Below the pieces are notes generated by a model. The model saw only the letters and a list, made by a program, of their open reading frames with translations. It was not told where the DNA came from and ran no database searches. Below, one piece after another: positions 13,295 to 64,000 of a stretch of 64,000 bases of DNA. The first letter of the stretch is position 1. The number at the start of each line of letters is the position of its first letter. The translations under genes and the position numbers were made by a program. Source of the stretch: Chrysomallon squamiferum (Eukaryota; Animalia; Mollusca); NCBI GenBank assembly GCA_012295275.1, contig CM022672.1:3968001-4032000 (forward strand), given 5' to 3'.

Positions 13295-13526
13295 TATTAT
13301 TATTATTTATTATTAAATTTTTTTTATGTTCTTGCATGTTCTTATGCGTGATAAACTAATGTTATACAAAGAGAGAATCGTTTTTTGTTTCAGGGCACAC
13401 AAGAAGACTGGAAGAAAGGACTGATGGCAATGGAGGACAGTTTGGTCGTTGAGAGATATGTAAATGAACAGCTCCTTAATCTACACAAGAAAGCAGCCCA
13501 ACTTGGTGACTCCCACGTAAGTACAG

Positions 13527-13601
<75 letters not shown>

Positions 13602-13994
13602 ATACACAAAGAAACAGACGTCTTCTGTTAATTATTTATATAAATTGCTATAAGCTAATTTTTAATTTCACCGCATAAATTTCACAACAAAATAAAAGTA
13701 TTTTTTTATTCTAAAGAGTTTGTGTCCTCCTTGCCTTTGCTTACAGAATATTTTTCAGGCGTGGCATAGTTTATTTAAATACAAAAATAATATAGTTATC
13801 ACACATTGAAATTTTAATATGATCATTAATTTATCTTTCTTTTTATTTTTCAGCTGACACACGTACTGGAGCATGCTTTCCTGGACGAACAGATAGAATC
13901 AATTAAGGAGTTCGCAGATTACATTACCCAACTCAGAAAGTTCAAGACCGATTACAATATGGGCGAATACCTTTTCGACCAGAAGCTTCAGTAA
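9499..13994 (+). CDS. Secreted yolk-type ferritin, about 251 aa, with signal peptide and Cys-rich BC-loop insert
   Basis: Exons 9499-9562 ([21 protein letters not shown], signal peptide), 10318-10421 ([30 protein letters not shown]), 11902-12048 ([41 protein letters not shown]), 12529-12645, 12885-12944, 13394-13516 ([28 protein letters not shown]), 13854-13994 ([27 protein letters not shown]...[10 protein letters not shown]). AATAAA at 14012-14017. Confidence 0.95.
13529..13599. repeat. (TC)n microsatellite in ferritin intron 6
   Basis: About 35 TC units just after the donor at 13517. Further (ATT)n and (TA)n tracts occur near 10230-10305, 13230-13310, 22190-22240, 24613-24656 and 35890-35960. 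Confidence 0.95.
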
Positions 13995-18104: not shown

Positions 18105-21100
18105 TTAGTTTTCTCCCTTCAGTGTACTCTCCAATTCTCCCCCTTCCTTCAGTTCCTTCAAAAAAAAAAAAAAAAAGTGTTAGTTTAAATTGTGAAGCAG
18201 CTTCATGCAGTTAAAATTATTATCAAATTTAAATTACATCTTTCCATGAAGAGCTAAAATTCAGTTTTCAATAAAATATACCTGACCCAAGAATACTTTG
18301 ACGAGCACAGATTCTGTGAGCCATCACTCTAAGGTTAGCTATCAGCCACTGCTCTATACTGCACCTTCAGGATCATTTCTTTCAAAAACCAAAATAAACT
18401 TCAGAATCAATCCTGATTCATTACATAAAATTTAACACCTGGGTAATCCATTTATGACTCTCACGAGCATAAATTTAAAATTCAACAAAAAAGAAGGCAG
18501 AGAATAAAAACAACGACCCATTAATGGAATATGGATGTATTTAGGCCATTTGAACTGTACAAATTAAAATGCATTTCAAGATTAACACAATAAACTATCT
18601 GAAATCTGAATGCAGTAAAATGCTCACTTTTATGATGTCCAAGCCACCAACCAGCTCGCCTTTGACATACACCTGCGGATAGGTGGGCCAGTTGGAGAAC
18701 TTCTTCAACCCCTGTCGGATTTCCTCATCTGTTAGAATATCAAAGGTGCTGAATGGAATGCTGTAATAACAAATTAATAAATGACAGACTTTGGAAGACG
18801 AAAAGACTTTATTGGCAAAGCTGTACTATGATTATCAGGTTTAAAACACAAAACACAACAAGAACTCATGTTGATAAATGAAGCAACATCTTAAAAACAA
18901 TGATAAAATAATAACCTGTACACTTCTAAGTTTTATTATTTTATTGCTGTAATTTATTAGTACTAAAAGTTAATGTCATTATAAATAAATCAGTTTGATG
19001 ATCATACTTTGACCACTTGTTTGTACCACTTACTGTATAGTACAGTTTCAGTTTCAACATAACAAATTAGATTATCCATGTCACAAATGATGTTTTAAGA
19101 AATGAAGTTTTAAATACACACCCAGTTTCCTTGAGAATCCCAACCAGAGTTTTACTGAAGCCACACCTAGGAGCATCTGGCTCACCCTTCATAAACACCA
19201 TCACTTTGGATTTGTTTATAAGTTTTTTAAGTCTGTAATAAAATAATTAATATATATATATATGTATTTATATATCAGAGGATTTTAAAAATGCAACCTG
19301 CAACATACCCTGAAAAAATTAAAATCAATATGCCTTGAAACTATTATGGTTTATTATTATTCTTATTATAAAATAAATAAATAATAAATAAAAATTAATA
19401 TTATTAATCACAACTGTTTTATTTTTGGGGACTTTTTATTTTATTTTACCTTCTATGGATTGGGTGTTGCCATTATCATTTCCTTGCAAGGTTTTATACT
19501 GGAAAAAATGTCATATTAATTTATCTTCATATTTTATATATATATACATATATATATATGAAGACAGACATCCAAGGATGACAATGTATAGCTCTTGAGA
19601 CCTCTACAAGTTCACAGATTCATTTACGATCAGGCCATCTTTAAAAAAAATTCATATTACAGAAAATTCAGTTTATATCAGTAGGAAAAAATAAAAATAA
19701 ATATTGTCAAGGATGGCATGTTGTTATTTAATATTCCCAAAGACTCGTATAAAACAGGTGTGCATGCATAATGAGAAATGACTCATAAACAATTCACTAT
19801 CATCTGTGTTTGCCAGTCACACACTTTGTGTACTGGAATACAGCTTGGTTAAAAAAATGTTTTTTTGAAGGGTGGTTTGGGTTTCTTACATATCAAATTT
19901 TATATTCAAGTTTAAGTAAATCAGTTTGCAGGCTGCTAAGTATTCAGTGTGAACACAAATACATTTTTGATGTGAAATGTGATGTGTAAAAGTAAATACA
20001 CATATATATGTATTTTGAAAGGTGATCCTGATACAGACAAACATTTTATGTAACCTGATGCAAATGCTACTAATACACTTTATTTGTATTTGTAAATGTG
20101 AAGTCGAAAATTGTTTCCAGTTCCTTAAAGTTGAATATTTCATGTTTAGCATGAGCAATAGTTACATTATCAGTTCATCTCAGTATACAGCACTTTATAT
20201 TTTCTTTTTCAGTGTTTCTCTGCTGGTATATCATACATTAAATATTTAGCTTCTAAATATATGCTATTACCTTGAAGTGGTTGTGGGAGACTCTCTCAAA
20301 TACAATCATTACAAAATTACAAGCATTAACCAGCACCGATAAAGATATTAAAATTATTTTAAAACATTATATATTTTTTATTAACTGTATTCAATAACAG
20401 AATATTTTGACATTTTCTTGTTTTGAATATTTCTATACTTTTGAAATCTGACAAAATGGTACTGAATTATATCATAAATTGTAATTCAAACGTAAAAAAT
20501 AAAACAAAATAATAAATGAATAAATAATAATTTAAAAAACAATACTAATAACAATAAAATAAATTTTATTCAGGAACTTTCTATTTTTAGTTAATTAAAA
20601 ATTAAAATTAAATGAAATTAAAAAACAAAATAAAATAAAATTTTAAAAAAGTGCTTTCTATTTTTATTTTTTATTTTTTATATTTATTACATAGAAACAA
20701 TGGAAAGCCTGAGATGCCATCACTGATTTGTAAATAATAGATGTAAATTATTTTGTGCTTTTGAAATGGATTGTTTTTGGCTGAAGAACTCTGCAGAATT
20801 TAATAACAATAATTAATAAGTAGATGAAAAAGAAGAGAACAATGAAATTGTCTGCATTTATTTATGTGCAGTAAACAACCAATGCACAATACAAATAAAC
20901 AAATTGAATATTGTAATGCAACTATATAACTTATGAATAGAAACTATTAAAAATGCACAAATACTTCAACTATGTAAATTGTATAAACTTCAACACTGTA
21001 TGAATACATTTAAACATGAACTTCTATGGGATAAAAATATGTTTGACTACAAAGAACAAAACATTGTAAGGCACATTCCATAAAGTACATGTGCCCTGTA

Positions 21101-22240: not shown

Positions 22241-24608
22241 TTTTTTTATCTGCAACTGAAACTGAATTCAGTAACATTATCAGAATGGTACACTGATTTG
22301 CTAATTACTATAATATAGATACTTTTAATTGTTATACAACATTTTTTAATGTTGTTCTTCAATAATAGTTTTTCTACACTTATAAAAGGTCAATTCAGGG
22401 GGAAAAAGATTTATAATTGTTACGATTTAATACTAGGAAATTGTCAAAAATATTCACATAGCACTGTCACTGTCAAGATTAATGTGCAATAATTTCATTT
22501 GGAACTGTTATATCATCAAATATGTATTTTTATGTTTTTGGACTTACTGAATACATGAAAACTGGAAAAAATTTATTAAAATTTTATACATCTTTTGTGA
22601 GAAAGGGTAGCAGATGTAACTGACATTATGATTACAGATAAAAAGTACTTGAAACATATGTTTTTAAGGCAATCTTTGCAGCTGAAATACTGTCCACTGA
22701 GGTACAGAAAATATTCATCTGTTCTTAATTTTTTAGTCAAATCCAAGAATACATAAAAATATTATGTTCTGTTTGCATAATTTAATCCAGTATATTTATT
22801 ATAAATAGATGATAAATGCTTGTGAAAAAAAAAAATAATAATAATAAATTACCAGCTAAGAAGTATAATTGTACCATAAAAAATTACATTTTTATAAATA
22901 ATTACTTCATCATCTTTCTTCATTTCATTTTTTTATAAAACATAATTAGCACAAATAGTAGTTAATTAACAAGGAAAATGCTGATGGTCTGTCTGATTTA
23001 CATTTTGAACTAGATGATCTTTATATTTATATGGCTTTGGTGTTAAAAAAGATTTAAAAAAAAAAAGTACATTAAAACAGAACAGGTCTTCCCCCACCCC
23101 TCCTCAAACTCTCCATTATTCCTTAATGAGAAGCATCCAATACAGCAGATGATTCATTGCCATCAGAAACTGATTCATTATCATCAGAATCAGATGAATT
23201 TTTGAAATTCTGAAACCGCAATCTGCTGTCTTTTTTATTTTTCTTTGAATTAGTTTCTGGTTTACATGGTTCAGAGTCCATAGAATCATCATAATTTTCA
23301 TCATACACAAATTTCAGTTTTTTAGCACTGGAGACATCTCTTAAATTATACCCGCTAGTCTTTTTGTCTTTGGTTAGTTTTGATCCATTTGGCTCCCGAT
23401 CCAGTTTTGAATAAACACTGAGAATATCCGAGGTTACTTTATTTAAATCTTGCACTATAGGATCGCTGGATCCATCTGCAATGGACTGAGACATTTCAAA
23501 ATGAAGCCCTTCAATGTCACTCTGGGAATCATCTGAATCAACATTTTGGTTCTTTTTCTTTGATTTTGGCCGAGAATGGCGACGTCTTTGCTGCTGCCGT
23601 CTTGCCTGATCATACTCTGGATAAAGACAGCGTAGTTCAGACTCCCTTGCTCGATGAAGTCGTTTTCGTTCCAGATCTCTCTGTTTTTTCTGTTCATATT
23701 TGTCTTTATAATCAGGGTCATTTTTCAACCTGTCCCTGTAATTCCGAGCTCGATTTCTATTCTGTTCTCGGTACTCATACCCTTTCATCATCATCTCTGT
23801 CAACTTCAGCTCAAAAGCATGAGGATCGAGAGATGTTTGACCAGGTAATAACGGCATGGGGCCGATCAACTGCTGAACAAGAAGCAATTGCATTGGGGTG
23901 AGCTGGGCAGCAATTCCTCCAGGGACTGGATCAAGATGTTTGGGGTTGGGATCCAGCTGAAGAAATCGGTCACCCATTTTATTTTGAAGTATTGAAAGAT
24001 GATATATAAACCATTCTTGAGCCCGTTTCACAGTACCAGGGTCATGTAATACAGTGCTGGTGACTTCATCTTGCAAAAATGATTTACTGATATCTATTTC
24101 AGTGGTTTCTAGATCACTACAGGCTGACACTGCATGTGTTGTGTTTGTTTTTCTAGGTGTAGAATGCCTGAAAATCAAAATTGATCAGCTTGAATAAATA
24201 AATAAAGAAAAGACATTCTTCATATTATTTGAAATTAAGAAATTGAGCTGGTGGAGAAATAAGTCTTACACAAACAATGTGAAGATTTTAGGGCCAAAAC
24301 TGATGTAAGTTACAATTTGCCTGAAAATTATATATTTTCCAATACAATCTTGAATTTTATGTTGTTATTATAATAATCAGATTTTTAAAATAAATTTTTA
24401 AAGCCTTAATGCAACTCATTATTTCACTGAACTGCTAAGACTCATTATTTTAAGACTGGCCATCAGATGCAAATAAAACAAAAAGCTAAATGTTCACAGA
24501 AAAAGTCTAGTGTAACTGTAATTATGAGTGAATTTAGAAAAGTGTGTCCTGTTGGTGAATTATTATTAATATTATTTTTTTATTTTTTTATTTATTTATT
24601 TTTATTAT

Positions 24609-24662
<54 letters not shown>

Positions 24663-27600
24663 CATAATGGTGATATTCAAAAGGATCTATTTACCTACCT
24701 TGAAATACTGCCATTTTCACACAATGCTGCATCATCGTGACTAGAAGCTACTGACTGGGAAGATGAGGTTAGGACATTAGTTACAGCATTCTCTGCAGAT
24801 GGTTCATCCTCAAACAATGATGGAACAATTCTCATAACACTGGGAGACACCAACTGGGCAACAGATTGTGAAAAGTTTATCTCCAAATTTTCCTCTTCCT
24901 TATTATCAACTTCCATCTGAATATCCTGTTCTTCATTTGAATCAAAACCTTTAGGTAGCCTTTCCATTTCCTCTGGGGAAAGTTCAGTCTTTACTGCATT
25001 GTTAGTATCACATGCATTGTCGCTGCCATTTTGTAGATGTTCTGTTACAGATTTTTTAGTGTTTGGCTCCCCTTCACTGACAACAGCAGAGTTGGACAGA
25101 CTGAAGCTGGAATCATTGGAGGAATACCCTGACATATTTACACTTGAATTGGACAAAACAGAATTATGAAGGTAAGCAGATGATTGATCCTGGGAAGGTT
25201 TCTGACCTCTTTCAGTATGGTCAAATGTTTTATTATTGAAGTCAGGGCTTCCCAGTGAAAACATAGAAAGTAATGATTTGCTCACAAATGATGCATCTGA
25301 TACTTCTTTGCCAGAAAAACCAGCTACCAGGAGTGAAGGATCTAGAGAAGAGTCTATAGATTTTGTTGAATCAAATAATCCCATACTTTTCTTCCATCTT
25401 TCCATCTGTTTCCTTAATCTTTCTTTTTCTTTGAAAGCTGCAGCAGCTTCAGGATTCTCTTTTAACTTGGCTCTTCTTTGTCTCATTCTTTCTCTATCTA
25501 GAGCTCTCTTCCTTTCAAGCTTCTCTCTCATCTTCACCAATTCTTCAGTTAAATGTGGAACTGCTGGTGCTAGTGATGGGTCACAACTGTTCAGTGATGT
25601 GGATGGAAGATGACCTGATGACAAAGCTAGAAGATTTGGTAGCTGAAAAGGGACATTTTCTCCTTCAGTTATAGAGGCCATTGTCACTCTGACCAGTTCA
25701 TCAGGAGGCAAGGAAAGCAAAAGAGTATTCCTCCTCCTTTCGATTCTCTTGCGAATTTTCTCTCGTTCTCGTATAGCTGCTGCCTGTTCTGGATCCTTCT
25801 CTCGAAGTTCTGCTCGTTTTCTTCTTACTCTTTCAGCTGCCTCTGCTCTCTTCATTTCCAGATGAGCCCTCAATTTAGCCAGATTTGCTGCTGTTTCTGA
25901 ATCTAGAGGAAGCTGTTTCAGCAGACAGTTTCCAGGTGTACCTTCTGACAAAGATGCTATTGCTGCCTGAAGAATTTCAGTGTTGTTCGCAGCTTCTTTC
26001 AGTGTTTCATCTGGAAGTGAAAGAAGAATAGCATTTCTCTTTCTCTCCTCTCTTTTTTTCAGCTTCTGTTTTTCTCTTTCCATTGCTGCTGCTACTGGAT
26101 CATTTTCCCTAAGTTGTTGTCTTCTTAGTCTCATCTTTTCTCGACTAATTAATTTAATTTTCTCCTTTGTTAATCCATCCATGTTCAACCTCTTCAGTCT
26201 CATTCGTTCACGATTTGTAGCACGCCTCTGTTCCTCCTTCTGTTTAAGATCTTCAATATTATCTTGTGAACTAAAAGGGAAAGGAATCGAAACAGGATTA
26301 CCTTCATCATCCAGGATATCTGTATTTGCTGCAAGTCCAGCTGCTTCAGATAGAAGGTCTGGTGGAAGAGACAACAGCAACTGATTACGTTTTCTCAACA
26401 TTTGTTTTCTTGTTCGGTCTTTCTCTCTTTCTTCTTCAAGCTTTTCAGGATTTGATAATCGAAGCTGCTGACGTCGCCTTCTCCTATATTCTGTATTTTT
26501 CTGTCTCCTAATCTCCTCTGAGAGAGAGTTTTGACGTTTCCTTCTCCTTCGATATCCTGAATTTCGAGGTGACTTTGAGGATATTTGCTGTTTTCTGAAT
26601 TTTTCTTTTTGATCTGAATTAGGAAGCCACTCCTCTCCAATGTCTTCCTGTTCAAACTGAGAATCATCTGACGACTGCATACACATGTCACTTAGGTCAT
26701 CTCCTTGGAAATGCGAGTCAAAAAATGCGTCTTCTATTTCCTGTTTAACTTCAACCAATGATTCTCCTTCTATGAAAGATTCATTCATGTTTTCACGGAT
26801 TTTATTATTGGTTGAATCTGTATCCAAACAGTGATTTGAATAGTTAAGTAATTTTGAACATTTTTTTTGTGAATTTCTACAACTTTTTTCAAACATATTT
26901 CCTTTTTGTTGTAAAACAGAAAGCATCTTGGGATCACTGGTTTCATTTTCAAGCAGTTTCAGTCTTTTCTCTCTTCTTCGCTGGTTTATTCGAAACTGAC
27001 ACAGTTCATTGTAATCTTTTTCTGACTCCATTTTAAGATTTACCTTCCATACATTATTCAGACTTCTTTTTCTCTTATTCCTGCTTGTCAGGTTACAATT
27101 GTTAGAATTATATGAATGAATACCCTGATTACTATTTACATCACCATTGTAATCACTCAGATAAGTCTGGCCCATAACATTTGGGTCATAACAAAATTGT
27201 AATTCACTGTGGTCTATTGGTTCTTGTTTTACTTTATCTAGGCTAAACTGACAAGAATTATCACTACTTTCTGTCTGAGGATGAAGACAGAGCTCCAAAG
27301 AAGCTGAACTATCATCCTCAAGATTCCCACTAGATTTTGCTATTTGTCCTGAACTAATACAATCCTCTTTAAGCTGACTAACACAATCTTCCAATTTTTT
27401 TCTCTTCCGAAAATTCTGTCTGACAGTTTCACTTTTATCACGGCTGGTCTTGTTTTGTCCATGAATCTTAACAGGAACTTGTTGTTGCTTAGCTAGGTCA
27501 GTTTCAGAACATTCATGCTGGCTTTCGCCATCACTGGATTCATTTTTAGTCATATGACACGAATCATTTGTTTTTCTAAGGTGTTTTATTTGAGGTATAT

Positions 27601-30600
27601 CTTTCTCATCACTGCTGTCTGGATTCGAGGGAGTTTAGATCAGGCATTACAATTAGGTTTCTGTCAGGCATCGTCAACGCAGACTCCTGATTCGCAATGC
27701 CATGCCTGAAACAGGAAACAATCCAAAATACTAGAAACATTTAAAATCTTACACTGCTGCAAGTCAGAAAACTCTTTCCTCACCATCTTCATTTTTTACA
27801 TTAACATATTAACAGTACAATGATCCTTGCAGAATATATAACAAACAAAATTTAGAACAATTAAATATTCAGTAATTAGACAACCCTTTTTATATATTAC
27901 TAACATTATAATATATACATCAATAAAACTTATAATATTAAAATACAATGATGAAAATAAATTAGGTGAGAGCGATTTTAAATGAAATTCTAGTTTGGAT
28001 TGTTTCCAAAAATGCTATCTAATTTTCTGCTTCAAAACATAAACAACAAATTCCATCATATTAAAAATATTTTTAATAACCCACCTGTCAATGTGTCATG
28101 TATATAGTAAATAAAGTAAAACTAATCCCAATATTAAATGAATTTTTAATAAAATATTTTGAGAAAACCTGTTCTGTAATTCTGACAAAAATCACATCTT
28201 CCACACAAAAACATAAACAACAGAAAATCATTTAATTTTTTTTCCCTATAATTTCTGCAGATGACACAAAATTATGTGTTCCATCATTTTCGTGCATAAT
28301 GAAATAAAAATATATAACTGAACAGGTTTTTTTTTTTTTAAATATTTTATGAACAGCACCAAAGCATTTAAACAATCTTATTTGAAACATTATTATTAAA
28401 AGTATTGTGGTAAATATATTTAAACTGTTTATTTAATTCTTGATTTGGTTCATTAAATAGTAACAGGTTATAGCCCAACTCAAAAGCTGAGTCAGTGTAA
28501 TAACAATAATTATTTTCTTACACAACCATACGATTTATATTATTAATATCTATTTCAAACCAAACACAAACACTGAGCTAGTCTTAACATCATTCCTATT
28601 AAATACTGTTAAATTCAATAATATGACTTCTACGTCAGTGAGAGAGATAGTGTAATGTATTTTGGGGGTAAATAATTTTTGAAATCAACATTAAAAACTT
28701 ACCTTTCTTCCAAGCCACCGTCTCCCCCGGCTTTAAGCTCAGACTCAAGTTGGCCTGTCTCAACAAGCTCCTTGATGATATCCAGCCCTCCGACCAGTTC
28801 TCCTTTACAGTATACTTGTGGGTAGGTGGGCCAGTTTGAGAAGGTCTTTAATCCTGTAATTAAAATAATCAACTACAAGATACATTCTCAGTTATCATAC
28901 AAGACACACTCAGTTGATTTTCAGTTTTATTATCATTCAAGGTACATTTATATTTTAAGTAAGTAATTTTTGCTTTAACAAGTATCAGGAAACCCACTGA
29001 AACCTGAAGTTATTCTTAATCATTAGCAGCAAATGATATTTTTTTAATCAATTTTATTCCTTTTATAATATCTGCCACTTACAGAAATGGTGGAAAGCAG
29101 TCCACTGGGGATAGAGATGATTTATCTGTGATTCATTATGTATCATTAAACTATATAAAACTTGAATTTATATGACTACCACATGCTGCAGAGTTTTTAA
29201 AACTCACCTTGCCTGATTTCATCATCTGCCAAGATGTTGAAAAAACTGTATTTAATATTCTTGTCATTCAGAATCTGTATCAGCTGACGGCTGAATCCTG
29301 AAATCAATGGTTTATAAGCGTATAGCATTAAACTAAATAATTTTCATCTCTGAATTTGTCAAATATGCAACAACCTTTTAAAATAATAATGTTGTAATAA
29401 TTTTTTCAACTTAACACATGTTCAAGAGATCTTCAAATTTTAACATCTAATAAATTTCAATTTTATATGTTAGGAACATTTTAAAAAATAATAATAAAAA
29501 TTTAACATTACTGAAAAGGTTTAATTCAATCTGTCAGCAATTTACATGACTATGTCCTTTAAAAATTGTATTTTATAACTACATTTCAGTGGTTAACAAA
29601 AAGAAAGCATTCTAATAACATATCCAAAATAGGAACGTGCAGGTGAATATTTGCTCTGTTACTATGGGCATAGCTATTATGAAAAGGCCAATGAACAGTA
29701 AACAACAAACCACATTTAGGTTCCTCAGGAGTTCCTTTTATGAATATCATGATGGGAGCCACATTGATCAGAGTCTTCAGTCGTGTGTTCAGATCCTACA
29801 ACAGTATTAATGTCATTTAGTAAAATGTTATTTACTATGAAAATGGTTTAAACGTGGGCATGAATCTAGCAGATTTAAGAAACCATTCAAGTAGTAAATA
29901 ATTAATTCATGTAAACAAAATAAATTTATCATTTTCTTTTTCTTTTTCAAAACTTCTATGTGTACACACACACACACACATACACATACAAACACAAACA
30001 TAAACATAAACAGATTAAAAAACACACACACACACACATTTCAGTGCTAATGTGTGTATGCATCTGCATGTGTGAGTGTGCACATATTCCTAGGTAGCAG
30101 CTGGTTAAAGAAAACATTATAATTCTGAATTACACTACCTGATTAAGAACCAGTATTTTATGTAAACTGCATAATTCTCACCGGTTTTTCAACAGACTTG
30201 GGTGGACTCACAGCATCCTTCCCCACAGATGCAAGCTGTTTTACTTTCTTGCTCAACTCAGCCACTTTGGCACCATCAAGACGATCAATCTTTTTCTTGT
30301 TCTTAACACAAAAACACACACAAAAAACACATAGATTAAAATCACAAATATAGCACTTTTATCATTAAGTAAGAAAAAAAAAAAAAAAAAAATTCTAAAA
30401 TAAATTATAATTTAAAATGTAGTCATATATTCTTTCAAACACTCATTTTATAGTTATCACAAAATTAATCTGAATATGGTGATGAAGCTTGCTACTCTTT
30501 AGATGTCAAAAACATCTACATTTTCTATTGAATTCCAATATTAATCCAATATAATTATATATAATTTAATTACCTTAAAAAACAAGCATGTCGGTACAGC

Positions 30601-33600
30601 AACTACCTGATATTTCTGAGAAATTTCAGCCAGTCCTTCTGCTTCAATCTAAACATAAAATAGTATATTTATAATTAGGTTAAACGTTTGTCCTTTTTAC
30701 CAATAATAGTAGGATAATTGTTAAAACAAAGATATCATTGTAGCTTTAGGAGATTATTTTAATTTGTGAAAATGTATTTGCATGTATTCAAGTAAACTGT
30801 AACAAAACAATTATCTGAAAGTATACAACACATTTTTAAGCAGTTTGTTGGGACCTGTTGAACAGTAAACAATCAAAGCGAATATTTGTAAATATACAAA
30901 ATGTATTTAAACTTTAGTTAACAAATATACAGACCTCCACAAATTTAACATTACTGAGCTGAGAATCCTTCGACAGCTCTGTCATGACATCATTCATCTG
31001 CTGGCACTGTGGAGCCCATGGAGCCGAGAAGTGAACAACAACCAGAGTGCTATAAAATAAATAAATACATTAATTCTGTTTAATACCTTAACAAATTTAA
31101 CATTAACAATCATGTAAAATATAGGGGTGGGTGATGTTTTTTGTTTTTTAATGAAGATGATAACTTTAATTTTCTTACATTATAAAACAAATTTAGAAAA
31201 AGAAGAAAATAATGGTCAGAAACCACTTGGGAAGCAATGAATTCAGTGGGGAAAAAAATAAGGCTCTGCTAACAATGAACACAACCCAACATTCCATCAA
31301 AGAACTATAATCTACTCCAGTAAATAGCCAAACATTCAAGCCATTTTTTTTTTCTAAATGAAAATATATGTATTACATAAATTGGCAGCCATACTTAATT
31401 TATACATTCCTGAAATTGCACATTATTTACTGTGAACACATGTATTATGTGCACAAATGTTTTATGTACCACCAGTTGTATCGTGAAAGTAATATATTTT
31501 GTATTTACTTTATAAAGAATTAGTTTTAAATAAAAAATATCTCTTGATGAATGAATCATGGATTTGTTTTTTTACATAGAATTTTAATTTTTTTTAAAAT
31601 AACAATGAAAGAAGCAAAGAAAAATAATAATAATGATGATAAAAGGAATAATGAAAAGGACAATATTAACTGGTAAAAGACAACAAAATTACTAAAAGAA
31701 AATTATCACAAGAAAATATAAATGTATTGTATACACTAACTAATTTAAATTTTACATAATATATTTAATTGAAAAAATATAGAGTTTAAACTTTAATATC
31801 AACTTGCTACAAATGTTCATGTTTTATTTATGAAAGTAATTTCACATTCAGAATGTACCTATGACAAGCTGTCATTATTGAATTGTGGCAAACTGATGAT
31901 TAAACATCTATAAATATATTCATAAAAAAACCCGCATGGACACTTACTACTGGTACCTGCTAATATTTTAATGAATTAGGGGATACTGAAGTAGATGTAT
32001 CACAAGAGTACAACATTAGAGGTATAGGTGCACAAGAACATATAAATATTAAATATTAAGTAAAAAAAAAAAAAAAAAAGACAAACAAACAAATGTGCAT
32101 TATTGTGTTATGATTTATGTTGCTGTTTTGTTGTTGTTGTTGTTTTGGGGTTTGTTTGGGTTTTTTTACATCTTTTTATATATTTTATCAAAATAATAAA
32201 ATTATCTGGATTAAGATATTAAGCATTCATGTAAAAATTTAATTTTCACATTAAAAATATTTATGGATGGACCATCTTTTTTATATGATTGTTTCAGCAT
32301 AGTATAGTAAAATTAATTAACCTAGAATAAATTAAAAACATCTAATTCTGTATTGCAAAGATGGCTTGCCATACAAAAAACTTCCAACATTTCTATGAAG
32401 GGAAACATTACACATTAAACCTTCTAGAAAAAGGAAATGGAAGAATTGATATATTAATTACAAAATTAAGAGTTAAGACATAGTAAAAATATAGAAATTG
32501 TACATTATATTTAAACTGGTTTATTCATTACTGTAACACATTTCTGGCAATTACTAAGCAGAAAATGGCTTTGCTATTAAGCAATCACTGTTTGTTTTTT
32601 GTTAAGAATCAAATCTAAAACACTGACAGTGACACACTGTTAGTTAGGCAGTTAGATGATGAAAAAAGGAATAATAAAAAAAATTATATTTAATTATAAT
32701 GCACTTTACCTAATTTGAATCTGTGGTGATAAGATGTTTTATTTATTTAATAAGCATATAAAGAAACATGAAAAGAGAATTAACACAAAAAAGAAGTAAA
32801 TAATAACAAATTCATAAATTTATATTATGGTAACATTAAATCATAATATTATTTGATATTTAAGACAAAAAAAAAAAAAAAAAAAACAATATTAATTTAG
32901 CTTTCAACTATTTCAGGGTTGTTTTTTTTACAGGTTGAGGATTTTTATTTATTCATTTATTCATTAATTTATTATATTTTTTATTAACTTTTTTCTTCTT
33001 CTTCCTTTTTTTTGTTGTTCTTTGTTGGGGGTTTTCTTGTAAATAAAACTGCAGTGTACAAGAGGAAGTCATCTAATTATGGTATTAATGGTAAAAAGGT
33101 ACAATAGCAAGTTACAATTTTTGGAATTTTCAAGCTAGAATTTGTACAAAACAGTATTGAACTGTATGTATTAAAGCATCAATATATTAAACATGTCTAA
33201 ACACAACCGAGATACAAATAATAAGGATGAAATTTGTGGTTGATTAAACAAGCACCATAATTTGAAGATATTTTGAATTATATAAAAATAAAATTATTCA
33301 GAGGTTAGGGCATTTTTCATGTCCATTGGAAATGATAAACTCTTTTTTTTTATGATCTTATTTACAAATTCCTTATGATTTTTTTTTTGATTTTTTTTAC
33401 TGTAATTCTGCAGCTCAAAGTATTTAATTTACTGAATTTATCAGCTGCTTCAGAAAAAGTTTTCATCAGAACTCATTTAGTTTGTAACATCTTAATTCTT
33501 TTCAGTATTTGCTTGTGTTGAAATTGTGCTTACTTACATAGTAAGTTACATGCTTATAAGCAATATGATATACATATGATTTTGATAGTAGAACTAGAAG

Positions 33601-34168
33601 TATTCCATGTTCTATCAGTATCACACAAACACTTTATTATCAGCCTCATGTTTAAACTATCTTATGTAATACAGGTTCTAAATAATAAATGTTGAAAGAA
33701 CATGCAACCGTTATCACACTAACAATAACTATGTGGTATGTAGCACTTGGGACGTTGGGTCGTGACTTGTCAAAATATTAAAAATAAAATGATTAAAAAT
33801 CTTTATTTTTCGGATATGTTGTATACTATACAGTATAGTCGTTGTTCATTTCGAATATCAAAATAATATCTGATCACAGGTGATATATAACAAATTAAAA
33901 CCACCGGTTTCTTTTGTGCTATCAAAATTTAGAACGAGTTAGATTTGGGTCAATTCAGTATAATAATAGTATTCATAGACTGACGAAATACCTTGGACGG
34001 TGTGTTTTGTGTCAAGTTCTAATAAAGAATAAAAAATATATGTGGTGAAAATAAATATCGGACAGCTTGAACAAAAATGTAGAGTTCGTAAAATAATTAT
34101 TACCTGTCAGAATCTGCCAGTAATTTGTTGAATTCTTCTGTCTTCTCAACTTTAACTACGGCAGCCAT
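18105..34168 (-). CDS. GLRX3: Glutaredoxin-3 (PICOT): Trx-like domain plus two monothiol CGFS Grx domains, about 331 aa
   Basis: Exons 34168-34104 (MAAVVKVEK), 31049-30935 (WAPQC), 30648-30574, 30301-30182, 29795-29711 ([11 protein letters not shown]), 29297-29208 (GFSRQ), 28853-28703 ([10 protein letters not shown]...GGLDIIKE), 19232-19122 ([14 protein letters not shown]), 18760-18628 ([10 protein letters not shown]), 18155-18105 ([16 protein letters not shown]). Total 996 nt, in frame. Confidence 0.97.
23123..24167 (-). CDS. Terminal exon B of the nested protein
   Basis: Acceptor ATTTTCAG|GCAT at 24167, phase 2, in frame with exon A (R-HSTPRK...). About 348 codons to TAA at 23125-23123. 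Contains a further basic module ([39 protein letters not shown]). Minus-strand AATAAA near 22795-22800. Confidence 0.85.
24699..27553 (-). CDS. Large exon A of an uncharacterised ~1299-aa protein nested in GLRX3 intron 7 (basic helical repeats, probably nuclear)
   Basis: 952-codon ORF in AT-rich DNA. It ends at a strong phase-2 donor AAG|GTAGGT (24699) and the frame stays open upstream to 27634. Strong acceptor TTGTTTCCTGTTTCAG|G at 27705. Four Arg/Lys/Glu repeats, NLS-like RKRKK, and psi-K-x-E motifs (VKQE x2, LKME, VKTE). Confidence 0.88.
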
Positions 34169-35897
34169 CTTTCTTTCTTTTTTTTTTTTTTTTTTTTTTT
34201 TTTCACTTTTTTTTCTCCCACCGGTTATTAACGAATATTGGGTTATCTCCCTTACAATATGTACAATAACTTATCAAAAGATTCACATATTGTAATAACA
34301 CGATATTCGCTAACTTGTCAAAATGTAACTTCTGACTTATTTAAACAAAAAAATAATAAAATAAAATAACAACAACAACACAATCAGCGATAAAGAATAT
34401 GAAAAAATTGTTCTAGCAAACGGCTGCGTAACTAATTAAACTGTAACAATAACTCTATTATCTATAAAAGTTTTGTTGTTGTTGTAGCTTTGCACATATT
34501 CGAAGTTATCATCATCCAGTTCAGTCACAGAGTATCTCAGTATGTGGATTACTATTTTTATCTATCGTATAAGTGTCTGTTTATGCCTGCAGAGTGGTGA
34601 ATGTTAAAAGAATATTTTGACTTACATTTGTTGAAGGAGGAAAGATAACTCATTTTAAGAATAAGGCGGGAAGGACGTTGGGAGATTGCGAATTGTTGTA
34701 ATCAAAGTTATGTAATAAAATGAATATTTTCCGGTCCTGAGTGTGGCTTTCAATCGTTCCGGTTTGGTGAGAACATTATATTGTTACAGGTTTAACTGGA
34801 GCAATTTTATCTTTTAGAATGGTCTCACAAATATATCCTTTCAAGTCTCGTTTGATTTATGATAAAGAAAGTCATTGTTTGCATACATAATAGTATATGT
34901 TTTAGAAGTTGAATGTCTTTGGTTTTAACAAATGAGTGAAAATTTAATTTCTAACTAATTTTTTTATACAACCGGTTGACGGACCATAATTTTTGTTTTG
35001 TTTGTTTTTGTTTTTAATTTTCTTTTGTAAAACTTCATCAAGCGTTATCAAGGCAATCATTCAAATAACATGATCAGTTTGCTTTTTACATGTAAATACC
35101 ACCTCTAATGCACTGAAAATGGAAATAAATAATTTAAAAAAAGAAGAAGACGACGAAGAAGAATTATAAGTTTCAAGTATCGTTTTACAACTACATTCTC
35201 AGAAATGTCCGCTATGGAGTTTTAGCAGAGTAACGTGTCCACATTATGGTACCTAATGAAAATAGTCATCTTCATATTCACGTGCCAGTGTTTGAGGAAA
35301 TTATTTTATTTTATTATTAAATTTTTATTTTTTGGTTGGCGATGTCATAATATCTGAAAAATATATATTGTACGAAACGTGTACAAGATGGCATGACGTC
35401 AAAGTTATCCCCCCCCCCCAAAAAAACCAAAAAACCAAAAAGGTTTCGACCTTTGCAGCCATGAACTCACGGAAATTTTTAAACTTCCAAATTCAGTTAC
35501 TTAACGTCTGTTTTCTGAACATTTTATGATTTACACTGATAAAGATTAGAAGAGTTGGTCATATTAGCAAACCATGATGTCGCGAGCCTTTCGTAACTAC
35601 TTTTTCAGTTAATCAAACGTCAAACTGGATTATTTTTGTGTGAATGCGTCGTGCATAATAAACTAAAATTATAATTCGGAAAAATATTAATGTATTAACT
35701 TTTGTAGTTGTCAATGTTCCCCCGTCAGAACCCAGCAGAAAACAACATTTAGGTGTTATTTGTACCCATTAAATTTGCGAAATTTCTTTGACATAATTTG
35801 TGACGTTACGCCTTATCGTTCCATGCTAATCAAAGTGTCTGCTGCAGGTGAGTTTTGTCTGGTTCTGTGAATTATATTCTTTACAAAAAATATATAT

Positions 35898-35965
<68 letters not shown>

Positions 35966-37026
35966 TTTATTTTTTTTTTTTTTTTTTTGGAACTTGCATA
36001 TATTATATATACGTACGTGTGTGTGTGTGTGTGTGTATGTGAAAATCGTCGCTTACATCTATTTTGTTTAAGGACGATACATGGACTGCTGAGCCTGTAA
36101 AGTGCAAAACAATGGTTGACAGCCAATCTAAATGAACGGGTGGCGGATACTGCTGACGAATGTCGTGCGAACTCGTCGACCTTTAAATTTGGTTTTCAAT
36201 TTTCTGTTGTAAAACTGCTATCAAGCATTGTAATGAATGTATCAAGGCAATCATTCAAATAACGTGATCAATTTGCTTCTTACATGCAAGTACCACCTCC
36301 AATGCATTGAAAATGAAAAGAAATATAAATAATAAAAAAAAAAAAAGAGAAGAAATTCAAGAATTATAATTGTTTCTAGCTACAGAGCTTTAGCACATTA
36401 TGGTACCCAATGATAATCGTCATCTTCATATTCACGCGCCAGTGTCTGTGAAAATTATTATTATTATTATTATTATAATTTTTTTTTTTTTTTTTTTTTT
36501 TTGCTGGCGAAGTAATAATATTGGAAAACAAATGTACACTACGAAACGGGTACGAGATGGTATAACGTCAAAGTATCTACTTTTTCAACTTAACATTTCA
36601 AACTGGATTATTTTTGTGCAAATGCATGCATAATACACTAAAATTATTATTTGGTATAAGATTAATGTATTCCCCGTGTCAGAACGCAACAGAAAAGAAC
36701 ATTCAGGTGTAGTTCGCGCCTATTAAATTCTGGCGGCATGTTTTCCGGTGATGTGATTTGTGCCGTTGCGAGTTATCGTTCCTGTTGGTCGTTGCTACTT
36801 CCAGTATGTTGCGAGACCTTTGTCGTGAATTATGATCATGCTTACATTTTTGTAATTGTTTCACTTTATGATTAAATTCAGTATAAAATTATAATTCTTT
36901 AATGTTAAAATTAAATTACATGTAGTGTTATTTAAGTGGCAAAATTCAGGACGTCTAACTCTAAGGCCAAAAAACAAAACTTCATTAAACTTATGTTTGC
37001 AGAACCCAAATTCTCGGGAGATTGGC
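34169..37026. promoter_or_regulatory. Divergent GLRX3/NUP107 promoter and 5'UTR region
   Basis: Head-to-head genes. GGCGGGAA at 34665-34672 and CCGG-containing motifs. Candidate + strand non-coding first-exon donors at 34766 (TTG|GTGAGA) and 35847 (CAG|GTGAGT); acceptor TGTTTGCAG at 37002. Confidence 0.55.
35020..36785. repeat. Diverged tandem duplication (about 35020-35825 and 36200-36785)
   Basis: Shared collinear blocks such as TATCAAGGCAATCATTCAAATAAC, GTCATCTTCATATTCACG, CAAACTGGATTATTTTTGTG and TTATCGTTCC. Copy 1 has an extra ~190 nt. Confidence 0.85.
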
Positions 37027-40000: not shown

Positions 40001-42002
40001 AAATGTGAATGAGTTACTAATTTTTTTTTTTTTTTTTTTTTGGTGTATGTATGTGTTGCTATATAGGTAGTTAAATAAAAAAAAAAAAATCATCATTTCA
40101 GGTTCGGCATCTTAGTGACAAGACTGTAGTGATCAACCTGTATGAGAGAAATGACAGTTTGCGTCAAAGTCAGGTAGGTGTTTTAAATTTTCTCTTTCAC
40201 CCATTTTTCATTATAAAATAATAATGTTGTTCTTGTTTCCATTCAGAATGAAACTAATTTTTAAAGCAGTAATTTATGTAACTTCTAGTGTTAATAAGAT
40301 TCTTCTAAATCCTTTAGCGCCTTTTGTAAAATGAGTGTAATTATATATTTCATATGTATATAAGCTATAAAGAACAAATAAACCTAAATTTGTGTTGGTG
40401 AAAAATAAATATTGTCTGGTTTTTGTTACACATAATAATAAATCATTGTTGAAGAAGTTAGACTGATTGTTTCATTTGCATATTGGCTTGACTGGATAAG
40501 GAAATAGTTGTTCTTTTTACTTAGCTTGTTATTGATTGGCTGGAGAACTCTACTGCAGAATGCCTGGAATTGTTAGCTCAGAAAGTAAACTTTTTCACTG
40601 ATGTGCCTATTGCTTGGTAAGAATACATTTTTAAATATTTTAAAGTTGTATATAATTCACATTATCTAAGCATCATATTTTATTATCATCATAGGATGGT
40701 AGCTAGTAATGAACAACAAAGAATATTAAAAAATTATTTAATCTGTTTTTTTTTTCTTCTCATCTGTACATTTCAAGTTATAGCAATCAATACCTAAACC
40801 AGAAATTGTTATTATTTTTTTTTAATTGCATAATTTATATAATTTGTATTTTTAGGGAGAACACTCTTCATGAGTTGCAAAATAGAGCCAGAGGAATTCC
40901 CAGTTCTACTGACCGACTCCTTGTTGATGAACTGGTACATTTAAACTTTTTTCTGTGTCTCTTACTCAGGGTTAAATATACAAGCATATCATACAAATGT
41001 GGAACCACATGAAAACTGTTATATTCTTACATTTTACTCTAATTATTCTTTCAAGTTGCCTGCTGGGTTTTTTAAATATATAATTAGATGTGTTTATTGA
41101 TAACAGGGGCTAATTTTCTTTAATAAAAGCATTTATTTTGAAATTGAAAATATTTTTTTCAAATCTATTTTAAAAATTTATAGCATTCAGAATAGCCTTT
41201 GTGTATTTATTGTACATATTTAAAAAATATAAAGATAATTCTTTTCTTTTTCTTTTATTGATATATTAATTTATTTTAAAGGATCCTGATGCTCCAATTC
41301 GCCAGAACGGAATCTTGGATGATTTGGATAAAGAGGATGAAGACAGACTCTTACAACATGTGTTTGTCTGTTTGCGAGCTGGGCAGCTAGACAAAGTATT
41401 ATTATTTAATTGTTTGAAAAGTCAACTTTAAAAATATAACCTAAAAATAACTGTTTTTAAAATACACTTCTGTTTTGCATACATTTAAATTATATATACG
41501 GGTGGGTGGGTGTGGGTGTATGTGCATACACATATAAATGTACTCTCAAAAACTATAATTTAAAATATTTGTTTGTTTCTTTAAGCTTGAAACAATCATT
41601 ACAGCATGATAGCATGTCAAAGTCTTGATATTTACAAAACTTGCCCACTGTATAAGCAGGTTTCCTTTCTCCTTGTTTTTATTGTCCCTTACAACATAGA
41701 TTTCACTTCCTACAGTGAACTGTTAATGTGCTCCTCCTTCCTTCAGGCTCAAGAGGCATGTCACAAAAGAGGACAGCATTGGCGTGCAGCAACAATGGAA
41801 GGATGGAAACTCTACCACGACCCCAACTTTGAAAAATTAGGCCCTGATAATCAGTTGGCACCAGTAGAGGGCAACCCAAACCGCGATGTTTGGAAGAAAG
41901 TGTGCTGGAGAATGGCTGCTGATGTAAGCATGAAATAAATATTTATAGAGTATTAAAATGCTTTTTAATTTTTATTTTATTTTAATTTTATTTTTATTTT
42001 AC

Positions 42003-42039
<37 letters not shown>

Positions 42040-45000
42040 ACACCTGACAGAAATATAAGATTTATTTATTGAATGACAATTTTTGGGAAGCCATTATTTA
42101 TATATATTTTTTATGTCATTTGGGTTTGCTTTATAGAATTATATCAAGCTTTGTTTCAGAGTGGAAAGTGAAATAATCATTCAGCTTATAATTTCTTTTT
42201 AATTCTAATAGAATCTTTAAAAATGATGTTTTAAATATTCTACCTGAATACAGCATTTTACCTATAATACACTAAATGATTACCTAACAGTGAAATAGTT
42301 TAAAAAAATTGTTTTGCGATTTCAGTTTTCAGGTTTTTTAATTATTGATCTTATATGCCATCATGTTTAATTTTAAAATTTAAATTTTTTTTTTACTACT
42401 GACTTTACTTTGCAATATGTATTTGTTTTTCTCATAGCCTAAGATGAGTGTGTGTGAGAAAGCCATATATGCTGTATTCAGTGGTAATTTGCGAACCTTA
42501 CTTCCCATGTGTTACTCCTGGACAGACTACTTGTGGGCATATTTCAAAGTGATGGTTGATGTACAGGTTGAGAAGGAAATTCGAATGAATGGAACCTCAA
42601 ACAGAACATTTGAGGAACTTCCGTCATCTTACTGGGATAATCTGTGAGTAGAGATTTTCAACAGTTTTAAATATCTCTAAATATCTAAATATCACATTCA
42701 CTTGTGTATTGTATTAGTTTTGGTTATACTGTCCAGGCAGGGGTTTAGAAATTAATTTTATAAAATGAAGGCACAGTAAAAGATGTCAAAGCAAAATGGT
42801 GGAATAATATTCATTTATGATTAGTTAACCTTGGGAATTACAAAGTATAGTTTGATAGCAGTAGTATTCTACTTGATGCTTACATTTACGTATCATAGTA
42901 TTCTTTGAAAATCAAGTTTTTGAGGAACATGGTGTTCAGAGCTCTATAGTAATTTTTAAAAGATATCTATAAAATTTCAGTGCTACAAATTTAACTTTGT
43001 TCCTAAGATATTTTTAACTTTTCATGCTAAAAATAAACATGAATTCTTGAAAGAGTTAAAATCAGATTTATGAAGATAGAAAATTTAGTTTTCAAATGTT
43101 TATGCATTTCAATATTTTTTGTATCTATGTTTATTAGAATGGAGCCTCGCCAAGTCTTTGAACAAATTGAAGCCTGTCCAAATGAAGTAAGCTTTTGTTT
43201 AGTTTATGTTTAGACAAGCAGAATATGTGACACAATTTATGTGAAAATTCACTCTTATTATTTATCAGGTGCTACCCATATGTGTAACTAAGCAGTGATT
43301 ACATTAGAAATTCAGAATAGCAGATGAAAATGTAATTACAAATATTATGCATTTTTTTTTAATCATGTTTGCATGTAAAGACCTATTCAGTGAAAAACTG
43401 GGACTGTTTTTGTAGAGTCATTCAGTTTTGCTTTTAGCTTAAAAAGCACTTGGAGATATCAGTGACAAATGTAATCAAGGATCAAGTAGTGTTATTTTTT
43501 TAATTTTTCATACATTTATGAAACAGATGACAAAAAATTAGTCCCAACTTTTAATCCTTTTTATTTAACTGTTTTATTATGGGGGTTTTGGGGGGGGTGG
43601 ATGTTTTTTTAGTATTTCTTTGAAAAATATCCTGTCAAAATTTATTTGGAAGCGTTCACTAAAAATCTGAATAATACATGTGTAAAGTTTATATATAAAT
43701 TGTTTTTTATTCTGCCTTTTACAACAGGTATTTGAATGCTGTCAGTATCTGAATAACTGAAATTGAAAAAAGGATTTTTTATGTGTATACATTTTCTTCT
43801 TTTTCTTTTTGTAGATGGTGCGCAAGGAATCAAAGTATTGGTTTTGTGTCATCCAGAAATACATTATCCTTGGTGACATTGACAGTAAATACATTAAATT
43901 ACATTAACCATCAAACAGTGTATATCTGGCTGTTATTTTACTTTTGTTGGTAAAAATATATACTTCTTCAGAATCATGCACATATTGTGAAACAATGTTT
44001 AATAACAGATTAACCCAATTTTATAATTAACAATGATTCCTTATCCAAATGTATGTCTACATTTTATTTATTTTATTTGTCATCATTATTTATTCAAAAA
44101 TTTAATCAGTGTTTATAATTTCTATTTTAGTGTGTAACTATTGCATAATTGCAATGATTGTTATAACATTTTCTAACCACTGTTTAAAATTAGATCTTAA
44201 TTTGTAACCAATATTAATTTAATGTTTCAGATTTAATAGAAGTAATGCACAGCTGGGTGTTCAAAACAAAAGAGCAGCTTCCTGGTCATTTTATCAGATT
44301 CTTGGCTCATCTTGTTCTGTTTCTTCAGTCAGTTGGCCATGCCACGAAGGTAATCGTAGTAGTATCTGTTTTTAATAATTAAAACATTTAATTTAACTTG
44401 GGTCCTTTATGCAAACTTTCTTATTACATAACAAAATCCGAAAATAAATTTGATAAAAAAAGTTTTTATTTTTATTGTCAAGGAGTTACAAATTGCATAT
44501 GCCAATATAGTTGACTTATTTAATAATTTTATTTCTTTATATATTTTCTTACTCTGATTTACTTACTCACTTTCTTAATTCAGTCTAATTTAATATTTAC
44601 TAGGAAGAACTGTAGCACTGAAGGTCTGTGATGAAACTATAATTTATTTCATTTTATTAGGAAGAATTGTGTACCACTATACTGGAAGCCTACGTAGAAC
44701 ACATAATCAACATTAACCAGAGTCGACTGGTAGCACATTACGTTGCCAGTCTACCCCGACAGATTCAAGTGATGTGGTATGCCAAGTTCTTAGAAGGTAA
44801 GAGTTTTCTGAAAAATATTCGGGCTTATGTAAAACCACTATAATGACCTTTGCAGAAAATGTGTATGTTGAGCTTAGAGAGCAAAACAAAGCATTTGAGT
44901 TCCAGTGATATTTGGACATCTTGAGCTATTTCTGGTTCCAACCAGTGCCCCACAACTGGTTTAACAAAGGCCATGGTTTGAGTTACACTGTATGTGGGAT

Positions 45001-48000
45001 GGTGTATATATGAGAATCTTTGCTGCTAATAGCAGGAAGTAGCAACATTATCTTGAATGGTACTTAACCATTTGTTCCTTGCCATACAGGTATTAATAAA
45101 ATTGTATTTTTTAACTAAAACATATCCTCCTTTCCTTGAAGTGCTTTTTTCAGTTTTTCCACGGATTATGATACTTATACTGAAAACTTGTTTTTCAAAA
45201 ATAATTGTTAATTAGACAGACTGCTTTAGCATTTAATGTTTTTTGTTTAATAAAATTATGTCCTTTGCGTTTAATATTTTTTTATTATTATTATTATTCT
45301 AAGCAAGCCTATTTTGTTTTTCTTAATTTCTGTAATTCCACTGATCCCTGCCACTAATCTTATAAATAAAATATTTTAAGGCGTTGAAGATCGTGATGAG
45401 CGAGTTCAGTGTCTGCAGCAGGCAGAAAAAGAAGGTCTTGATATTCCACTTATCACCAAAACAGTGGTGGAGAATATTCGTCATCGTGACACCAGCAGTG
45501 TGGCAGCTGGTGCCGAACTACCACCAGAAACTACAATCTCTGAGGTTTGTTCAGTTTATAATAAAATGTTTTTGATTCTTTTTAACTTGCTTTTGTTTTA
45601 AAAAAAAAAAATATATATATATGTACACACGTGTGTGTGTACATATATGTAAGCGTGCATGCATGCACAGACACACACATACACATATATGTATAGAAAT
45701 TGTCAAGTGGTAAATAGTAATTTTGTTCCATTAAACATTAGAGCAGACTATAAATCATTTCTGTGATACTTGTTTGAGGAGAGATGGTCTTTGGTTAATC
45801 CTTTTTATTGTAACCGTGCCTGTCAATAAAAAAAAATCCTGAATATGGGAAAGTGAATTCCTAACTTTAGTTTGTTTAAAGAATAATTTTTAAAACTCAA
45901 AATACTAATAAAAAAATATTGTGTTATATATTAATAACTGTTGATAAATGAAACTGGTTTTCATTCAATCATTTCAGACAATTATCTTCTTATCATCATT
46001 ATCATCATATTATAGACAATTTTTGTGAACATTTTTTAATTTAAAATCTTTCTTTTTTAAATTTATGTTATTTCTATTCTGTACAGGAGGATCGTAAAAA
46101 GATTGAGGCTATTGACTGGTTAGTGTTTGATCCTACACAGCGACCAGAAGCCATGAAACAAGCTAATGCTGTAATGAGATCTTTCATTGGTCAGTTCAAA
46201 AATATTACTATAAATAATAGTGTTTTGAATGTTATCAACAAGCAATATAATAAAAAAACATATGTTTTAAATATATCAATTCAAAAGGATTGTAACTTTC
46301 CTAAATCTTCAGTCAGTAATGGATACAAGACAGATAAAAACAAAAGTAACTTTTTTCTTATTACTGTTACTATTTACATTAATGAATAAAGTGCGATTTG
46401 TACAGTCTAAAATGTTTTAAAATATCTTCAGGAAAATAAAGTAACAAAGTGCAAGAGTGAAAAAAATTATTAAAAATTAATTTGTATTATTGATATTAAA
46501 TTTTATTTATATATTTATTTACTTGTTTATTATTATTATTATTATTATTATTATTGTTGTTGTTTTCCAGCTCTTAAAAAGAACATAGCTGCTAGAGAAG
46601 TGTTTAAAAAGTTGCCTTCAGATTCTGTCGACTTAATTATGAAAAAATGGCACAAAAGGGTAAATATAAGTTTAATACATTATATTAAATCTTTATTAAA
46701 AAAAATATTTAGTATTTAAAAAAATGTGGGTATGGGATGGCTGTGAGAATGTGCGTACATTTGTCTGCATCCATTCCTGTTTGTGCATTAAATCTGATGT
46801 TTTATTTTTTATTTTTTTCATTTTTTTTAATTGAAAATTGAATTGTTGCAAATAAAAAAATGAAGAAAATAGGTTTTTGGTCATATATCTTAACATAAAT
46901 TTTATTTTGTTTTTATTTTAAATTGTAGACAGGATCTCTTGATTTGCCACCTTCAGATGCCAATGCTATCAGAGAATACCTGTGTATTAAAACTTACCTG
47001 GTATGTGACTTTTCTTTAATATATTTTCAATTTATTATAAATTATATCTTAATCAATAGCTTTTATTCTGTAATACATATGGCATTTACTTGTGTGGTTT
47101 TTTGTGGAGGGGATTTTGTGTGTGTGTGTTTATTGGTTCTTGTTATTTTTATATGTATTAGATTTTGTCTGTTTAATTAATATTTTTCTTTATAAGAAAC
47201 AGTAATATTCAGGATAACAGAAGGTGCAGTGGAAATATTAAATGTTTTAAAAAAAAACCCATCATTTTAGATGAAATTTTACAAGAATGTTTAATATTCA
47301 CATTTTATTTATGTGGTACAGTACACTGGTTTCTAACTGATACCTGAGAATAAATGTAAGTCACTAAATCATAAATTACTTCACTAAGTCTGACGGTAAT
47401 ATCAGTTGATGACATGAATGACAGTCACGAATGAGAATGCTGTCCTTATCAAACTGTTTACCATATAGAAGCACAATCGGAACAAAAACACTGCCAGTTA
47501 CAAGATTACATATTATTATTATTATTATAACTTATTTATTATTTTTTTATTTTTCTAAATAGGATGCTGTAGAAAGTTTTAACAGATGGTTTACACTGTT
47601 CCACCATGACAAGCCAGTGAAACCTGATCAGATTAAGGGTGGAAACTTCACTGAACGTGTTGCGCATGAACATCGACTAAAACAGTATCAGGCTGAATAT
47701 GACAGATGGCAATACAACGTTGCTCAACAGACCAAGGTATGTATCAATTTTGTAACAGTTTAAATTAATCTCAGTGGCCTCACTTTGAGATAATAATGTT
47801 CTCCACAAAAATATGTTTGACAGTTAACTCTAATAATGGATAAATAGTTGTCTATGCTAAACTCATCTTGAATACACATTTTGACGCTCGTCATTAATTA
47901 TTGTGCAAGTTGCTTGGTTCTTGAAACTGGTCATGATGACACAAGTAGTTTCTACAATACTAGTTTAGCAAATATAGCAGCCATTATGCTGGGTGATACA

Positions 48001-56642: not shown

Positions 56643-64000
<7,358 letters not shown>

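Follow-up and report, generated by a model that had tools for sequence, protein, structure and literature searches.

Members of the GLRX3/PICOT family bind glutathione-ligated Fe-S clusters in the cytosol and nucleus, according to PMC9202360. PMC10704371 describes fungal Grx4 acting on the iron-responsive factors Aft1/2, Php4, and Fep1 through [2Fe-2S] transfer. A looser precedent for GLRX3 on chromatin is human PICOT, which, according to PMC6746821, binds the PRC2 component EED; it reaches chromatin by way of a partner bound to its glutaredoxin (Grx) domains rather than through a fused basic tail. The subject of this analysis is the GLRX3 gene of the gastropod Chrysomallon squamiferum, lying in a stretch of 64,000 nucleotides (nt) of contig CM022672.1 (positions 3,968,001 to 4,032,000, forward strand), hereafter the window. 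A long isoform of this gene shares the N-terminal thioredoxin-like (Trx-like) domain and the CGFS Grx domain with GLRX3/PICOT and with yeast Grx3/Grx4, but it drops the second Grx domain and adds approximately 1350 residues. In a literature search whose coverage excluded most subscription journals, no description of this GLRX3 isoform was found.

A ten-exon GLRX3 gene occupies the minus strand of the window from ATG 34168 to the stop at 18105, and two large open frames lie between exon 7 (28853-28703) and canonical exon 8 (19232), at 27634-24695 (979 codons) and 24184-23123 (353 codons). A preliminary description of the sequence had pointed out that splicing exon 7, which ends at 28703, to an acceptor at 27705 gives a product of 265 amino acids (aa) ending at TGA TGA (27611-27606); that the +1 frame stays open over 979 codons starting at 27634, the last 952 of them beginning with ATG 27553; that the two frames overlap by 23 nt; and that further AG acceptors at 27614 and 27611 are in frame with exon 7. 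Each of these features is reproduced in the assembled sequence. Nine sequencing runs cover the stretch, and contigs from seven of them (X1, X3, X4, X5, X6, X8, and X9, leaving out X2 and X7) were examined, representing six samples from three studies and both DNA and RNA. All seven have two additional letters (GC on the plus strand) inserted at 27620/27621, in each case backed by the entire depth of the contig there. With the two bases the translation around this site reads L-E-S-A-D-S-S-D-E-K, and without them L-E-S-R-Q-Q-stop, and no further indel is listed for the coding part in the run contigs. The restored frame, running from exon 7 through 27705 and 24167, comprises 4755 nt and 1584 aa, and its only stop is the terminal one, located in the last exon observed. 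We conclude that the two missing bases are very probably an assembly error, and that the restored transcript can be read in one frame, the predicted product being a GLRX3 isoform of 1584 aa in which the second Grx domain is replaced by a basic helical-repeat tail that may bind DNA. The GLRX3 gene model would then need a 2-nt correction, with no recoding at this locus. Among the explanations put forward in the preliminary description was an assembly indel hiding a fusion of approximately 1580 aa; the fusion is borne out, but the indel measures 2 nt and not the proposed 1 nt. The missing bases may represent a methylated CpG miscalled in long reads, an idea that fits their CG placement; a literature search on such miscalling as the cause returned nothing.

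The apparent +1 shift is explained by the fact that a 2-nt loss looks identical to it, and the apparent TGA TGA stop and the 23-nt overlap arise because two bases are missing at 27620/27621. Programmed +1 frameshifting at the TGA, or termination followed by reinitiation at ATG 27553, on an mRNA containing the break draws on the assembled sequence only, whereas both break and stop are absent from mature mRNA in the three runs with spliced contigs, and the break is likewise absent from the four other runs. Recoding at the stop codon is an artefact once the two bases remove the break, and a bicistronic mRNA loses the stop codons and overlap on which it was modelled. A simple indel between 27640 and 27605, which the preliminary description had named as the observation that would contradict recoding, was sought in the run contigs and found (2 nt, seven of seven runs). 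Nor is the frame break conserved in orthologs, since P0006 and P0001, introduced below, read through in a single frame. The chance that this locus uses frameshifting or reinitiation is practically nil. Use of the minor acceptors 27614 or 27611 to skip the stop and yield a fusion is scarcely credible: both keep the reading frame of exon 7 in the assembled sequence, but neither is among the joints listed for the run contigs (one joint table is complete, the other is two rows short, and contigs tend to lose rare forms), the 27705 joint is present in all three spliced runs and is itself in frame, and the segment that would have to be skipped aligns with P0006. Because the join of exon 7 to 27705 is one frame with the two bases, frameshifting, reinitiation, and minor acceptors are not needed.

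The two bases could also be missing from a real, rare loss-of-function allele of the assembled animal, the long isoform being normal in the species and the allele giving the 265-aa product and probably nonsense-mediated decay. Consensus errors are not most often 2-nt deletions away from homopolymers, which counts for such an allele; real indel polymorphisms occur nearby in the untranslated region (UTR) and in an intron (23112 and 33827); and the run evidence consists of contigs, which drop rare forms. Against it, the deletion is present in none of the seven runs, the X8 contig matches the window letter for letter over 25071-27704 and yet has the two bases, and the tail is under purifying selection. 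We regard a rare allele as very unlikely and retain the assembly error as the explanation of the break.

The exon 7 donor joins 27705 across a GT-AG intron of 997 nt in all three runs showing spliced joints (X8, X9, and X6, the last having no RNA label on record), confirming that GLRX3 uses this acceptor, as the preliminary description had supposed. In the same three runs a loose end at 28703 is identical to 19232-19203, the start of canonical exon 8, and donor 28703 is therefore joined to both 27705 and 19232, the arrangement of alternative last exons. The donor of exon 8L, 24699, joins 24167 in X9 and X6, and in X9 the end of exon 7, the whole of exon 8L, and exon 9L lie together on one RNA contig of 4225 nt, which carries both joints. 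GLRX3 in C. squamiferum has a second isoform with alternative last exons (Table 1). A contig of the long-isoform UTR reaches at least 22300, and the interval from the stop to exon 8 contains 15 AATAAA sites, contigs being unable to show the RNA end. Contig depth is 7-29 for the long exon and 65-188 for the shared exons, which is not valid as an expression measure but hints that the long form is the minor isoform.

The short isoform translates into 331 aa with the usual Trx-Grx-Grx layout, including two Grx domains. The long isoform retains the Trx-like domain and the first CGFS Grx domain, and has WAPQC at residue 33, CGFS at 153, WPTYPQ at 191, and GGLD at 205, the last two being motifs of the CGFS glutaredoxin domain. 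Its Trx-like domain lacks CxxC (WAPQC occupying that place), as is typical of GLRX3/PICOT, and residues 1-223 of the Haliotis proteins described below, which are 64-65% identical, match PF00085. With one CGFS domain, the long form departs from the two-Grx organization of the family.

Table 1. Features of the GLRX3 locus in the window (positions are those of the window)
Feature	Coordinates	Strand	Evidence and remarks
GLRX3 exon 1, coding part, ATG 34168	34104..34168	-	Sequence; joint 34104/31049 in X8
GLRX3 exon 2, Trx-like domain, WAPQC	30935..31049	-	Sequence; X8 joints
GLRX3 exon 3	30574..30648	-	Sequence; X8 joints
GLRX3 exon 4	30182..30301	-	Sequence; X8 joints
GLRX3 exon 5, where the first Grx domain begins, with CGFS residue Cys153	29711..29795	-	Sequence; X8 joints
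GLRX3 exon 6	29208..29297	-	Sequence; X8 joints
GLRX3 exon 7, last shared exon, donor to 27705 or 19232	28703..28853	-	X8, X9, X6
Long-isoform intron, 997 nt, GT-AG	27706..28702	-	Run-contig joints
Alternative exon 8L, 3007 nt assembled, 3009 nt in runs, one open frame with the two bases	24699..27705	-	X9 contig covers whole; translation
Missing two bases, placeable as GC or CG on the minus strand	27620..27621	.	7/7 runs, equivalent placements
Basic helix-(N/D)P-helix units 1-4, LLSLP motif after units 1-3	25382..26503	-	Sequence, predicted helices, alignment
Long-isoform intron, 531 nt, GT-AG	24168..24698	-	Joint in X9, X6
Alternative last exon 9L, coding to TAA 23125-23123, then 3' UTR to at least 22300	22300..24167	-	X6 contig 22300-24166, X9 contig 22982-24166
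Basic units 5-6	23770-23549	-	Within exon 9L coding part
Canonical GLRX3 exon 8, second Grx, CGFS	19122..19232	-	Loose ends at 28703 match first 30 nt; translation
Canonical GLRX3 exon 9	18628..18760	-	Sequence and translation, not run contigs
Canonical GLRX3 exon 10, coding part	18105..18155	-	Sequence and translation, not run contigs

With tail residues 300-750 as query, four proteins were retrieved among 7993 scored candidates: P0001 from Gigantopelta aegis, P0002, an ENA protein, P0003 from Haliotis asinina, and P0004 from H. cracherodii, whose cluster also contains P0009 from H. rufescens. The same four proteins were returned among 7983 scored candidates by a profile search, which was word-limited but missed nothing known here, and a search of 50% representatives with the tail returned P0002 only. 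P0001 aligns to residues 254-1560 of the long form, across the break site, with 64% identity over 1366 columns. P0006, a member of the P0002 cluster called from genomic DNA, begins within the intron, contains the acceptor stretch of the window in the form W-I-V-S-C-F-R, and then continues in one frame; restoring the two bases lengthens its local alignment from 32 residues (score 81) to 83 residues (score 141). The Haliotis proteins P0003, P0004, and P0009 consist of Trx, one Grx, and the same tail, with the switch after the same E-(D)-R position, and in RefSeq the abalone fusions carry the name 'uncharacterized protein'. When the Trx-Grx region was used instead, 22 proteins of 766-2438 aa matched (3120 candidates), and only two Haliotis clusters among them also appeared in the tail searches, the other long Trx-Grx proteins (plants, nematodes, and fungi) carrying different Pfam families or none. 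No other mollusc was found in the representative, Trx-Grx, or profile searches, whose length range and sensitivity are limited, so that absence elsewhere is not implied, and a scan of metagenome contigs for the tail gave 599 pattern matches, none of them confirmed. Because Neomphalina and Vetigastropoda are separate gastropod subclasses, the fusion of GLRX3 to the tail is likely old; the animal of the window is probably related to Gigantopelta. In two gastropod subclasses, abalone among their members, an ancient Fe-S chaperone gene has a conserved second product whose large basic tail is unannotated. As a separate observation, the ENA contig encoding P0006 and P0007 splits the orthologous tail into 430 and 585 aa within unit 1, and the tail is intact, at 990 aa, in three other cluster members; the split is probably another assembly frameshift.

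The tail might instead be chiefly the product of an independent nested gene, driven by a promoter within intron 7 and starting at the in-frame ATG 27671 or 27647, fusion to GLRX3 being a splicing side product; the assembly error could hold in this case as well. In G. aegis, P0001 has an annotation of its own as a 1375-aa protein without Trx-Grx (LOC121383017), its first methionine aligns with 27647, and low-depth RNA contigs lie in intron 7 (27971-28462 in X6 and 28080-28323 in X8). However, contigs over the start of exon 8L run on into exon 7 in all three spliced runs, the low-depth contigs of X8 are found equally in introns 1 and 2, as pre-mRNA would give, the acceptor stretch is conserved in P0006, and the three Haliotis models are fused. 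We consider a nested gene unlikely, and LOC121383017 may be the unjoined tail of a G. aegis long GLRX3 isoform.

Selection on the tail was assessed from single-letter variants, 14 of the 19 listed in exons 8L and 9L being synonymous in the restored frame and none a stop. Random changes would be expected to be synonymous in 21% of cases (p 1.3e-6), or in 34% if transitions alone are counted (p 5e-4). Purifying selection acts on the tail. The linker shows no constraint in this small sample, because the two variants upstream of the break (27673 and 27679) are both non-synonymous. Length variants were recorded besides: at 23112-23120 in the long-isoform 3' UTR, 8 nt are missing in X6 and one extra base is present in X5 and X9, in a homopolymer, which may be a second consensus error or a polymorphism; at 33827 in intron 1, X8 has 12 nt extra.

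Acidic, poorly conserved stretches (isoelectric point, pI, 4.6-5.5) flank two basic regions of the tail (pI 10.4 and 9.8) with several K/R runs. Six units, each a basic helix, (N/D/H/Y/F)-P, and a second basic helix, are located at residues 653, 770, 872, 985, 1387, and 1419, and occur in the same order in P0001, P0003, and P0004. When units were paired with those of Haliotis, five of the six matched the unit of the same rank best, same-rank pairs being 35-72% identical. A single-sequence structure model of units 1-4 predicts long helices kinked at prolines, with a mean predicted local distance difference test score (pLDDT) of 72 and a predicted template modeling score (pTM) of 0.23. Atlas neighbors of the tail are uncharacterized clusters (0.80 and 0.78) and 'putative bZIP' and ZNF821/STPR clusters (0.77), all within the range of shuffled sequences. 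Anticodon_1 (E 0.014-0.018) was considered as a family for the tail and rejected as a match of helical composition.

The closest described DNA-binding helices are those of the STPR domain (FMBP-1, ZNF821; PF21107), which bind the DNA major groove and whose consensus, according to PMC4856987, is tandem repeats of strictly 23 residues with Glu1, Thr/Ser2, and Arg9. The tail resembles them in its basic, all-alpha helices with short turns (24% R+K, pI 10.4, the helices being predicted by the single-sequence model) and has the ZNF821/STPR cluster as a weak atlas neighbor, but its units are helix pairs approximately 100-120 residues apart and not four abutting repeats. PF21107 was absent from the seven tail-bearing sequences at E up to 1, and the autocorrelation of basic residues along the tail has no clean 23-residue period. 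By analogy with STPR helices, which bind in the major groove, the units may contact nucleic acid, and a plain coiled-coil or scaffold role would stand on an equal footing with DNA binding.

Animal iron sensing is known mostly as a post-transcriptional process, through iron-regulatory proteins and iron-responsive elements (IRP/IRE). A transcriptional route would be open to the long isoform if the following steps hold. Alternative acceptor choice after exon 7 gives a long and a short mRNA, as observed, and the long protein is presumably made. Its remaining CGFS domain would bind a glutathione-ligated [2Fe-2S] cluster, by analogy with other GLRX3/Grx4 proteins; the tail has, in our estimate, an even chance of carrying the protein into the nucleus and onto DNA or chromatin; and control of tail binding by cluster occupancy is a doubtful further step, modelled on Grx4 acting on Aft1/2, Php4, and Fep1. 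The working analogy is fungal Grx4, in which a Trx and single-Grx module acts on a DNA-bound regulator; in fungi two distinct proteins supply the glutaredoxin and the transcription factor, whereas here they would form one chain by alternative splicing. Homology of the tail to Aft1/2, Fep1, or Php4 was not found. Tentatively, and with the odds against it, vetigastropod and neomphaline GLRX3 could be spliced into a one-chain Fe-S-sensing transcription regulator, a Trx-Grx sensor joined to an undescribed six-unit basic helical DNA-binding domain, which would be a covalent animal counterpart of the fungal Grx4-Aft/Fep1/Php4 systems, the choice of last exon deciding between it and the cytosolic chaperone form. 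If true, a glutaredoxin tied directly to a DNA-binding module would constitute a transcriptional iron-sensing route.

Several points weigh against an assembly error that hides a long, DNA-binding isoform. On the side of the gene structure, the evidence is drawn from contigs, from which a rare deletion allele, however unlikely, could have been dropped; the shorter arm of the exon 7 joints measures 31 letters, the contigs breaking at the branch; the long protein is known at the level of DNA and RNA sequence; the Haliotis fusions are predicted gene models; and the G. aegis protein is annotated separately, as noted above. Both linker variants are non-synonymous. On the side of function, the tail departs from the STPR consensus, E[TS]x6R pairs at a spacing of 23 being absent from the long form and from P0001 and P0003; Pfam scans of the tail gave no match above the curated cut-off; a PDB sequence search gave two rows, the best at E 0.41, and no match; Foldseek with the tail model, whose pTM is low, gave none at E 0.001 or better; and charge, helicity, and the weak atlas lead are what point to DNA binding.

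Elsewhere in the window, exons of a Nup107/Nup84 gene (41591-46389, plus strand; Pfam PF04121) lie on the opposite strand and point away from GLRX3, and exons of a DEAH-box RNA helicase, presumably DHX15/Prp43, are found at 58173-60043 (plus strand; DEAD and Helicase_C matches). Two minus-strand open frames located between these two sets of exons, one of 213 codons (51600-52241) and one of 106 codons (54073-54393), have no significant Pfam match and possibly form a small opposite-strand gene. A 107-codon open frame at 13355-13678 (plus strand) is coding-like in its first part, then runs into a dinucleotide repeat, and has no Pfam match; it could be part of a gene that runs toward the 3' end of GLRX3 from the other side. 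Upstream of GLRX3, two similar diverged blocks spotted by eye (35100-35760 and 36300-36720) are probably non-coding repeat copies.

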